Positions 8,737 through 9,893 of a stretch of 25,265 nt of DNA are shown piece by piece. Both the position numbers and the translations under genes were made by a program. Position 1 is the stretch's first letter. Each line of letters opens with the position of its first letter. This DNA is from Parcubacteria group bacterium CG_4_9_14_0_2_um_filter_35_11 (GTDB lineage Bacteria > Patescibacteriota > Minisyncoccia > Minisyncoccales > GCA-002788555): the NCBI GenBank assembly GCA_002788555.1, contig PFRL01000055.1, forward strand, positions 1-25,265, in the 5' to 3' direction. The notes below the pieces were generated by a model that saw only the letters and a program-made list of their open reading frames with translations, did no database searches and was not told where the DNA came from.

Positions 8737-8869
8737 AGTAAAATTGATAAGGAAATTGATTTCTATAATTATAAATGATAGCATAAATTATACTTTTGAC
8801 CAATAATTAAAAACCCCATTTTGATATAGCGGGGGTAAGAAATTTAATCTTTTTGTGGGAAATTCTAAA

Positions 8870-8888
8870 CTTTGCGCTTTGCGCAAAG
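8870..8888. repeat. Perfect hairpin CTTTGCGC-TTT-GCGCAAAG downstream of tRNA-Ala
   Basis: 8-bp stem, 3-nt loop, at the edge of a GC-rich patch. Could be a terminator-like or REP-like element. Confidence 0.5.
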
Positions 8889-8949
8889 CCACCGAGCCGA
8901 GCAGCGAAGCCGCGAGGCAATCCTCTCATCAAACGGCGAAAGTTGCGAT

Positions 8950-9023
8950 TGGTGGACCCGCGGGGACTTGAACCCCGGACTCATCCATGCCATGGATGCG
9001 TGTTACCACTATACCACGGGCCC
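8950..9023 (-). tRNA. tRNA-Ala(GGC)
   Basis: GGGCCCG acceptor with G3:U70, anticodon arm CATCC-ATGGCAT-GGATG, T arm CGGGG-TTCAAGT-CCCCG, A73, encoded CCA. Confidence 0.96.
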
Positions 9024-9085: not shown

Positions 9086-9160
9086 TGCCCCCAGGAGGAC
9101 TCGAACCTCCAACCTTTCCCTTAGGACGGGACTGCTCTAATCCAATTGAGCTACGGGGGC
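9086..9160 (-). tRNA. tRNA-Arg(CCT), CCA not encoded
   Basis: GCCCCCG/TGGGGGC acceptor, D arm GCTC-AATTGGATTA-GAGC with the Arg identity A20, anticodon loop GT-CCT-AA, T arm GGAGG-TTCGAGT-CCTCC. Confidence 0.93.
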
Positions 9161-9171
9161 TTATTTATTAA

Positions 9172-9798
9172 TTAACGTTTTATAATTTTCTCTTCGTAGA
9201 ATTGATCAATTAATGATTGAATTAACTTCAAAAAATTACCTCCCTTTTTTATAGTTATTCTGCACATTCCATATTTAGTTTTACCTCTCGTACTCCCATC
9301 GTTAAATCTTATAATAAATCTATGCTTTGGAATTCTAGTAATTTTAGACCAATAATTTAAACATTCGGACCTATTCATACCAGAGAATATCCTCAAAGTT
9401 GGTTTAATATCTTTTTCTTGTACATTGAATACCTTTCTTAATACAAATAAGTAAGTTTGAATCATTCTTCCATCTGAATTAATGAATTCGCAACTTCTCT
9501 TACTCCCCTCTCCCCAGTACAGTATAGAGACAACGATAGCAAGCTCTCGATATTCGCCTCGCAATAATTCTTGGGCACGATCTCGCGCTTTTTGCCAATA
9601 AATTTTTGTTCGTTTTGCGCTCCCTCCTTGTTTAGCTTTTAATATAGGAATATATTTCGGCACAACTCTCACGCCTTGAATATGATACCATACGGTAGTT
9701 TTAGGTATGGATAGCTCTGCGACTAATTCATTAATACTATATCCTTTTCTTCTTAACTGTTCTAATTTTTTTATCTTATCTGTTGAATGAACTCTCAT
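9172..9798 (-). CDS. HTH plus LAGLIDADG-like protein adjacent to tRNA
   Basis: N-terminal HTH (LRRKGYSINELVAELSIPKTTVWYHI), then a degenerate LAGLIDADG helix (SILYWGEGSK), F.NSD..MI and YW....IP...F. Confidence 0.65.
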   Translation of the reverse strand: MRVHSTDKIKKLEQLRRKGYSINELVAELSIPKTTVWYHIQGVRVVPKYIPILKAKQGGSAKRTKIYWQKARDRAQELLRGEYRELAIVVSILYWGEGSKRSCEFINSDGRMIQTYLFVLRKVFNVQEKDIKPTLRIFSGMNRSECLNYWSKITRIPKHRFIIRFNDGSTRGKTKYGMCRITIKKGGNFLKLIQSLIDQFYEEKIIKR

Positions 9799-9804
9799 TA
9801 TTAT

Positions 9805-9813
9805 AGTGTATCA
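9805..9813 (-). promoter_or_regulatory. Candidate extended -10 promoter for a leaderless transcript of the LAGLIDADG-like gene
   Basis: Minus strand TG-A-TACACT (TGnTAnnnT) lies 6 nt before the ATG at 9798; no Shine-Dalgarno sequence seen. Confidence 0.45.
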
Positions 9814-9843
9814 CACAAACTAGAAAGAGCCAATGTCTTATTA

Positions 9844-9893
9844 TTAGAAGTTCGATGTTCTATTCGAAGTTCTATCCGTTGAACTACGAGAGC
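9844..9893 (-). pseudogene. 5'-half remnant of a tRNA-Arg-like gene with an internal 12-nt duplication
   Basis: GCTCTCG-TA-GTTC-AACGGATA-GAAC (acceptor 5' strand and intact D arm), tandem ATAGAACTTCGA/ATAGAACATCGA, then A-CT-TCT-AA. No T arm or 3' acceptor strand follows. Confidence 0.7.

Follow-up and report, generated by a model that had tools for sequence, protein, structure and literature searches.

Why does a small open reading frame (ORF) stand between a tRNA-like fragment and an intact tRNA gene, and what became of the gene to which the fragment belonged? The question is raised by a 25,265-nucleotide (nt) stretch of DNA, contig PFRL01000055.1 of Parcubacteria group bacterium CG_4_9_14_0_2_um_filter_35_11, which was analysed at its full length and is called the window here. 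The host genome is of the Patescibacteria type (543 kb, 35% GC, 58 contigs, 87.6% complete). On the minus strand of the window, on which all of the features located below lie, the gene order is a thioredoxin-reductase-like gene, an mscS-like gene, the tRNA-like fragment, an ORF of 208 amino acids (aa), tRNA-Arg(CCT), tRNA-Ala(GGC) and tyrS. Sequence comparisons support the view that an incoming unit, made up of the ORF and a tRNA, displaced a resident tRNA gene and left its 5' part behind. With a probability of roughly 55%, we consider the ORF to encode a free-standing and probably self-repressing homing endonuclease that carries a spare tRNA.

The search for the fragment used a profile of 50 tRNA-Arg(CCT) genes, each cut to its first 25 nt, and covered both strands of the 543-kb genome. 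The fragment was recovered at 9893-9869 with 24.7 bits (nhmmer, E=1.1e-5 genome-wide) as the second-ranked match, ahead of the intact Arg(CCT) gene. Its positions 7-25 are identical at 19/19 sites to the tRNA-Arg(CCT) gene that follows mscS in a sister genus (G002), and its D arm (GTTC / AAYGGATA / GAAC) is the commonest type among the ORF-free tRNA-Arg(CCT) genes of the order. Its acceptor part, 7 nt long and rich in C and T, can be read in part as the 3' end of mscS. We take the fragment to be the 5' remnant of a tRNA-Arg(CCT) gene that once resided here, because sister genera hold an intact, syntenic tRNA-Arg(CCT) and because of the identity of the D arm.

The likeness to tRNA covers the acceptor 5' strand, the D stem and the D loop, and ends after the D stem. 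Beyond these 25 nt neither similarity to native tRNA nor an anticodon stem was found, and the stretch that follows, including 'CTTCTAA', aligns with the region upstream of the ORF at two other loci (L001 and L002). The 5' tRNA remnant of the original prediction is thus real, with a length of 25 nt rather than the 38 nt that had been assigned to it. What had been read as an Arg(TCT) anticodon loop lies in the conserved promoter and operator region of the ORF, and the junction, which had been placed at the anticodon loop, lies after the D stem at about position 25/26. A switch of isoacceptor had also been proposed; it is not borne out, because the ancestral syntenic gene is CCT and the genome holds a separate intact tRNA-Arg(TCT) on contig C30. 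For the same reasons an Arg(TCT) origin of the stump was rejected. The acceptor strand of the remnant does pair with TGGGGGC of the intact tRNA through three G:U pairs, as had been pointed out, and this pairing is uninformative. The covariance check that had been suggested for the fragment came out negative, as the Rfam tRNA model reported no match, also when the fragment was set at the end of the searched stretch. An orphan 3' half of the old tRNA was found nowhere in the genome.

The 5' profile was further run against 81 loci of the ORF family (80 from species-representative genomes, and the window), and unannotated same-strand matches with E<0.1 were counted as stumps. They were present at 5/48 loci of the Arg(CCT) type, namely the window, L001, L002, L005 and L007, always on the same strand and 60-107 nt upstream of the ORF, and all five fall within the clade closest to the window. 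With a D-arm weight matrix, strong signals were confined to the window, L001 and L002. At L072 (2848-2871), 130 nt upstream of a paralogous ORF of the Lys clade, a weak match to the 5' part of a tRNA-Lys was found (E=0.08), which suggests that stumps occur beyond the Arg(CCT) clade. Descent of the promoter from a whole decayed tRNA was considered and rejected: the T-arm weight matrix gave a mean of -6.6 upstream of the ORFs vs -5.5 for the shuffled null.

The module occupies a place where sister genera of the same family hold only the tRNA-Arg(CCT) gene. In one of them (G001) the order is trxB-mscS-tRNA-Arg(CCT)-tRNA-Ala(GGC)-tyrS, without the ORF, and in the other (G002) mscS is directly followed by tRNA-Arg(CCT), likewise without the ORF. 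A search for empty-site relatives of this kind had been suggested, and together with the stump they uphold the earlier claim that an incoming element displaced the old 5' half. Presence/absence polymorphism with clean empty sites, as found here, is characteristic of free-standing homing endonuclease genes. The effect of the insertion extends to the mscS-like gene (10437-9844, 197 aa; Pfam MS_channel_2nd 8e-20, MS_channel_1st 2e-13), whose last ~17 codons run through the stump into the left end of the cassette, while the sister-genus proteins have the C-terminus ...SNLSKGKEILKSKSPR or similar, ending right before tRNA-Arg(CCT). A truncated mscS was considered and rejected, since an equally short form is present in the sister genera and only the tail is altered. 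As a side observation, a second tRNA-Arg 3' end (...CTCCTTCTAGGGGCAC, matching the end of the G001 tRNA) lies ~190 nt downstream of the intact tRNA-Arg(CCT) in G002 (L084, contig C1); it resembles a scar left by a further insertion behind that gene.

The borders of the module were given by DNA similarity to cassettes of other genomes. The shared unit spans ~0.8 kb (9863-9085) and comprises the operator and promoter, the ORF (9798-9172) and the tRNA. In blastn comparisons the matching blocks were 9863-9086 with L002 (77%), 9804-9085 with L001 (80%) and 9798-9085 with L003, L005 and L006; the flanks were unmatched, and the block continued unbroken through the ORF to the last base of the tRNA (9085). 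The intact tRNA-Arg(CCT) (9160-9085; ARAGORN, and Rfam with 56.9 bits) starts 11 nt past the stop of the ORF, exactly as had been described, and is the sole Arg(CCT) found genome-wide.

The tRNA itself was compared with those of other loci, for which the ORF-free native tRNA-Arg(CCT) genes were sampled with the G002 tRNA and the window's own tRNA as queries; at 76 nt, these genes are too short for a firm tree. The window tRNA is 87-89% identical to the ORF-linked tRNAs of L001 and L002 over its whole length and 85-94% by halves, vs 70-81% and 61-85%, respectively, for the syntenic native genes of the same family. Among themselves, the three ORF-linked tRNAs (window, L001 and L002) show 87-92% identity in both halves, and the same-family natives 71-76%. 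Because both halves are closer to the ORF-linked tRNAs than to the family natives, the whole tRNA seems to have come in together with the ORF. The supply of a new 5' half only, as had been proposed, is not supported by this similarity or by the extent of the blastn block. A partial chimera with a crossover near the 3' acceptor strand is possible, as the single G7:T66 wobble in the window tRNA could mark such a crossover.

The association with tRNA genes is a property of the whole protein family, which is strictly tied to them, with one clade per tRNA identity. All of the ORFs in the window's clade (48/48) are followed by tRNA-Arg(CCT) on the same strand, so the homologs bear out the association that had been expected, with 5' stumps at five of the loci. 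The stop codon of the ORF falls at most 45 nt inside the tRNA and at most 24 nt ahead of it, except for one at +68, and in 9/48 cases the stop is the conserved TAG of tRNA positions 8-10. Distant paralogs likewise precede tRNA-Tyr(GTA), Trp(CCA), Arg(GCG), Lys(CTT) and Gln(TTG), and a further clade stands before tRNA-Ala(GGC) at two loci of relatives. In the maximum-likelihood tree, the Arg(CCT) clade has a support of 99/97 and the Tyr clade 100/100; the tRNA labels require 8 changes on the tree vs 30.7 when shuffled. The window, L001 and L002 (a Gribaldobacteria locus) form a clade with short branches (100/99). The overlaps between ORF and tRNA can be read from the sequences: at L020, L022, L023, L025-L028, L041, L043 and several paralog loci the ORF ends 10 nt inside the tRNA, with T8-A9-G10 as its TAG stop, and other ORFs of the family stop at a TAA formed by the CCT anticodon plus AA, with an overlap of 38-45 nt.

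The distribution of the gene does not follow that of its hosts. An ortholog was present in 1/60 relatives and in 0/7 other genomes of the same family, and the nearest relative by tyrosyl-tRNA synthetase (TyrRS, 67%; G001) lacks the ORF and has an empty site. Between genomes whose TyrRS identity is 40-50%, the sole housekeeping marker compared, the ORFs are 61-77% identical, and one pair reaches 77% at a TyrRS identity of 45%. The similarity of the gene is thus out of step with that of the host, as is expected of horizontal spread, judged on this one marker. The Arg(CCT) clade therefore appears to be patchy yet far more conserved than housekeeping proteins. Between mscS and tyrS no integrase was found, as had been noted before, and the 208-aa ORF is the only candidate mobility gene at the locus.

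A total of 321 homologs of the 208-aa protein were collected, nearly all of 205-215 aa, of which the top 120 are 58-88% identical. Searches of Pfam, NCBIfam and PDB sequences returned nothing beyond a weak N-terminal helix-turn-helix (HTH) of the Tc3/Sleeping Beauty/resolvase kind. According to the predicted structure, the protein consists of an HTH (residues 1-46), a helical linker and a single LAGLIDADG-type domain (residues ~80-206). In the structure comparison of this model, HTH domains were matched to residues 1-46 and the C-terminal domain matched LAGLIDADG-type folds with Z at most 6.6, a middling value. Residues 81-200 were aligned with residues 5-98 of I-DmoI, and I-Vdi141I and I-Tsp061I stood lower within the top 16 matches. 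Clusters of the AlphaFold DB that are annotated as LAGLIDADG/DOD homing endonucleases matched at E 1e-7 to 1e-3. The LAGLIDADG-like character that had been assigned to the protein thus holds for the fold comparison, and the Pfam and PDB sequence profiles see the HTH only.

The motif MLYW[AG]EG.K closes the first helix of the LAGLIDADG-type domain, and six residues (Y94, E97, G98, N107, W150 and G177) do not vary among 77 members, whose identity goes down to 25%. E97 falls at Asp21 of I-DmoI, as judged from the aligned ranges. The strand order of the model is a-b-a-b-a-b-b-a, vs the canonical a-b-b-a-b-b-a. Of the features that define LAGLIDADG proteins, the core fold and the interface helix with a conserved acidic residue are present in the model, and membership by sequence profile is lacking. 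We accept, on the strength of the predicted model, that the C-terminal domain is a LAGLIDADG-type fold with a retained acidic residue, and from this we infer a probable nuclease activity. The ORF is intact in 44/47 loci at near-constant length, and degraded copies were identified in 2/47 (L039 and L044); degraded copies are predicted by a homing cycle.

The region upstream of the ORF displays a layout that is shared by the family: TAGAAC or a one-mismatch variant at -60 to -65, a -35-like TTGCTA/TTGGCT, xTTCTA at -27 to -31, TGnTAtAAT at -15 to -7, and the ATG. The exact TAGAAC occurs 44-76 nt before the ATG in ~23/47 loci, in 17 of them at -60 to -65, with one-mismatch variants in most others; GTTCTA or a one-mismatch variant occurs at -26 to -33 in ~20/47 loci. 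TGnTAtAAT is the best conserved upstream feature (38 non-redundant loci). In the window, the promoter region (9833-9800) contains a -35-like TTGGCT (9833-9828), a TG (9813-9812), the -10 element TACACT (9810-9805) and an overlapping TATAAT (9805-9800). The extended -10 promoter that had been suggested here is conserved across the family; in the window it agrees with the consensus at 8/12 positions and was not listed by the promoter scan, and its status rests on family conservation. Since the -10 element ends 6 nt before the ATG and a Shine-Dalgarno sequence is absent, the mRNA of the ORF is probably leaderless.

TAGAAC and TTCTA together form an inverted repeat that is ~42 bp wide and centred at the -35 region. 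In the window its left half, the left part of a putative operator, is the TAGAAC box at 9862-9857 (-64 from the ATG, the canonical family position), and its right half is TTTCTA (the complement of TAGAAA) at 9821-9826 (-28), inside the promoter spacer. The half-sites are 36 bp apart, vs 32-33 bp for the D-arm and T-arm motifs within the tRNA gene. Folding of the RNA upstream of the ORF predicted no structure (minimum free energy (MFE) z=+0.75), so the inverted repeat would act on the DNA. The same sequence, TAGAAC, makes up the 3' strand of the D stem in native tRNA-Arg(CCT) genes. At L001 and L002 the box coincides with this strand of the local stump, and in the window a 12-nt tandem duplication parts the TAGAAC of the stump (9874-9869) from the canonical box. 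This duplication (TAGAAC-N-TCGAA, 9851-9875), by which the box is doubled, had been seen before and was recovered by Tandem Repeats Finder with a period of 12, 2.1 copies, 92% matches and a score of 43. At loci where another gene abuts the box there is no stump, and as these stump-free loci keep the box, it belongs to the functional unit. Paralog clades have promoter-proximal inverted repeats of their own. The gap between ORF and tRNA, -45 to +24 nt, leaves the tRNA without room for a promoter of its own.

These observations can be assembled into a homing cycle. A homodimeric endonuclease would cut ORF-free tRNA-Arg(CCT) genes, and repair from a module-bearing copy would bring in the ORF together with its tRNA; a left crossover within the D-arm homology would leave the stump. 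The incoming tRNA would be transcribed only from the ORF promoter and freed by RNase P. The HTH domains may bind TAGAAC/TTCTA over the promoter and thereby repress the gene, with an operator half-site that would mimic the D arm of the native target, in the way that the operator of I-TevI resembles its homing site. A wider and more tentative proposal, which we regard as possible without favouring it, is that of an element that cuts the resident gene and brings a spare: the replacement tRNA could be expressed only from the endonuclease promoter, the host would be locked into keeping the selfish gene, and each clade would have captured another tRNA.

Several results weigh against the homing endonuclease. 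Pfam searches with the ORF, 23 orthologs and 10 paralogs gave weak HTH matches only, a profile of 25 members matched only HTH domains among the PDB sequences, and Foldseek against the PDB gave no LAGLIDADG match; the Z value is middling, as mentioned, and the top place in the structure comparison is tied with WhiA, a regulator that is not a nuclease. The counts of loci ignore the kinship of related genomes and hence overstate the support. No copy of the family was found among viral contigs and phage records. No empty-site allele was found in the assembled contigs of four metagenomes that hold the organism, in which the locus was covered without differences and from which rare variants are dropped.

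Further difficulties concern the spare tRNA. In at least one ORF-free genome of the same order, the tRNA-Arg(CCT) (L117, G013:C2:62357-62431) is 92% identical to the ORF-linked ones of the window, L001 and L002 and shares their GGATTAGAGC D arm; either this lineage is the source of the tRNA type, or the site has lost its ORF and retained the spare. Moreover, 13/48 ORF-linked tRNAs keep the ATAGAAC D arm as in native genes. The suggestion that the spare escapes cutting through its altered D arm (GGATTAGAGC vs GGATAGAAC) was kept as a weak hypothesis only, being true for the five stump loci and not generally. The homing endonuclease does not by itself account for the escape of the spare from cutting, the route of the DNA between cells or the intactness of the ORF in apparently vertical lineages. 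One and the same glutaredoxin-like gene precedes the module in several lineages, a recurrence that suggests that the module has long been inherited vertically.

The main rival draws on some of the same results. In this alternative, which we hold to be unlikely and place first among the competitors, the protein is a domesticated WhiA-like regulator without nuclease activity that controls its own promoter and, through it, expression of the tRNA-Arg(CCU) transcribed from there; the module would be kept for its promoter, and the patchiness would reflect old invasions, vertical descent and loss. The tied structural match, the fixed inverted repeat that overlaps the promoter, the ORF kept intact at near-constant length, the recurrent glutaredoxin-like neighbour and a tRNA that lacks room for its own promoter are all in its favour. 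WhiA/DUF199 (3hyi, 8dy9) also combines a LAGLIDADG-type fold with an HTH, and WhiA binds promoters. The two LAGLIDADG domains of WhiA are degenerate and without catalytic acids, and its HTH is C-terminal; WhiA-type domains lack the acidic residue. The window protein departs from this type, as its LAGLIDADG-type domain is single, its HTH is N-terminal and its Glu is invariant. This acidic residue is retained in 77/77 members, as are G98 and N107. WhiA is moreover a conserved single-copy housekeeping gene, in contrast to the patchy, tRNA-linked family with multiple paralogs described here. A regulator also fits poorly with an ortholog in one of 60 relatives, with 77% identity across a TyrRS identity of 45%, and with a fresh stump here beside empty sites in sister genera. 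The locking of each paralog clade to another tRNA fits target-specific nucleases.

A second alternative, which we judge less probable still, is that the ORF is a passive hitch-hiker. The block of ORF and tRNA would have entered by ordinary homologous or illegitimate recombination after DNA uptake, with the tRNA as the homology arm; the ORF would have no role and the stump would be a scar. Short conserved homology of this kind is offered by tRNA genes, and the same genome holds a spare tRNA-Arg(CCG) that lacks an ORF and sits on an inverted-repeat cassette interrupting a resident gene, from which it follows that tRNA replacement is possible without this ORF. The hitch-hiker fails, however, to explain why tRNA-specific clades are joined to the 5' side of tRNA genes at 48/48 and most paralog loci, and it equally fails to explain the invariant nuclease-type motif.

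The tRNA-Arg(CCG) case was observed on contig C5 (1914-2119, minus strand; L092:215-420), where the resident gene is broken in its T loop by an insert of ~110 nt. The insert has 12-nt terminal inverted repeats (CCCTGCACCAAA / TTTGGTGCAGGG), and contains a complete and different tRNA-Arg(CCG) and no ORF. The predicted fold of the nested unit is a cloverleaf whose T loop bears a long stem (MFE -71.9, z=-4.6). In the sister genus G001 the tRNA-Arg(CCG) is uninterrupted, and a similar nested arrangement is present in G030. This cassette resembles the module in that a resident tRNA is broken and a spare with the same anticodon is supplied. It differs in its terminal inverted repeats, its lack of an ORF and the presence of both relic halves, whereas the module has an ORF and only the 5' 25 nt of the old gene are left.

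The remaining alternative takes the fragment for a chance resemblance, or for one part of a split or intron-containing tRNA with its other half elsewhere. It has the silence of the Rfam tRNA model and a CT-rich acceptor 7-mer overlapping the end of mscS in its favour, and is largely refuted and very improbable in view of the genome-wide E=1.1e-5, the 19/19 match to the syntenic native tRNA, like fragments at the same offset in L001, L002, L005 and L007, the lack of an orphan 3' half in the genome, a downstream tRNA that is complete alone (56.9 bits), an upstream fold of z=+0.75 and no Rfam group I intron match.

Homing endonucleases are known from introns, inteins and phage genomes. Our literature searches found no published description of a family of nuclease-like genes that stand 5' of tRNA genes in cellular genomes with their own tRNA copy and stumps. 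The closest precedent for the targeting of tRNA genes, by analogy, appears to be SegB of phage T4, a GIY-YIG homing endonuclease whose free-standing gene lies in the cluster of T4 tRNA genes; its recognition site includes a conserved tRNA gene motif, and the gene is inherited jointly with its neighbouring tRNA genes at the expense of the tRNA region of the recipient (PMC2330249). Both are free-standing endonuclease-type genes among tRNA genes. SegB differs in that it is of the GIY-YIG type, phage-borne and active in co-infection, while the present gene lies in a cellular Patescibacteria genome and its product is predicted to be of the LAGLIDADG type; SegB is also not fused to one tRNA, leaves no stump and has no clade-per-tRNA diversification. 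A parallel to the proposed autorepression is given by T4 intron endonucleases that act as autorepressors, among them I-TevI, whose operator overlaps its own promoter and resembles the homing site (PMC2988022). The likeness would lie in the TAGAAC half-site at -64, which equals the D-arm sequence of the native tRNA. I-TevI is, however, a monomeric GIY-YIG enzyme inside an intron, unlike the homodimer proposed here, in which two HTH arms would bind a ~42-bp inverted repeat and repress the promoter.

LAGLIDADG homing endonucleases make site-specific double-strand cuts with 4-nt 3' overhangs. From I-CreI, I-DmoI (2vs8), I-Tsp061I and I-Vdi141I, the window protein differs in its lack of sequence-profile membership, its motif MLYW[AG]EG and its additional N-terminal Tc3/resolvase-like HTH; its gene lies outside any intron or intein, and its strand order departs from the canonical one. 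Integrase-borne islands and phages share with the module the use of a tRNA gene as a landing site, which is kept whole while a partial copy is left. They carry a tyrosine integrase, are kilobases long and duplicate the 3' end; here there is no integrase between mscS and tyrS, the leftover is a 5' fragment and an apparently whole tRNA is carried.

Downstream of the module lies tRNA-Ala(GGC) (9023-8950; ARAGORN, and Rfam with 56.1 bits), which belongs to the context of the locus and not to the module. In the window it is of the short-D-loop type (GGTATAGTGGTAACAC), and the tRNA-Ala at the equivalent place in G001 is different (GCTCAGTTGGTTAGAGC). At L100 (G028) and L106 (G051), a paralog of the ORF family stands between the native tRNA-Arg(CCT) and a short-D-loop tRNA-Ala(GGC). 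The window tRNA-Ala may be the leftover spare of an Ala-specific cassette whose ORF has since been lost. A GC-rich spacer behind this gene, together with the 3' part of the tRNA (8856-8983), had a summed contig word depth of 70-400 in four metagenomes, vs 4-11 in the flanks. The high depth suggests that the spacer is common to many organisms or copies, and it may represent a small element located behind tRNA genes. In G001 the spacer is missing and tyrS directly follows tRNA-Ala.

The sequence of the window is held by 24 aquifer and groundwater metagenomes. In one run (X24), a single contig with a depth of 2.9 matches up to 9158, at the 5' end of the tRNA-Arg, and resumes at 9873, in the D arm of the stump, the two matches being separated by 21 unrelated letters. 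The contig is probably that of another organism in which two tRNA-like pieces are present, and a rearranged allele is the alternative.

The locus provides a clean before-and-after pair, with sister genera that are untouched and this genome holding both stump and module, and this makes the idea of an element that cuts the resident gene and brings a spare directly testable. If the idea is true, the tRNA genes of ultra-small bacteria would be a battlefield of gene-drive-like elements and a source of tRNA turnover, stumps and nested relics. It would also make available a range of compact, self-regulating nucleases that recognise long, tRNA-specific sites. Finally, it would explain part of the odd tRNA landscape of the Patescibacteria, including the unexpectedly similar tRNAs that are found in distant lineages.

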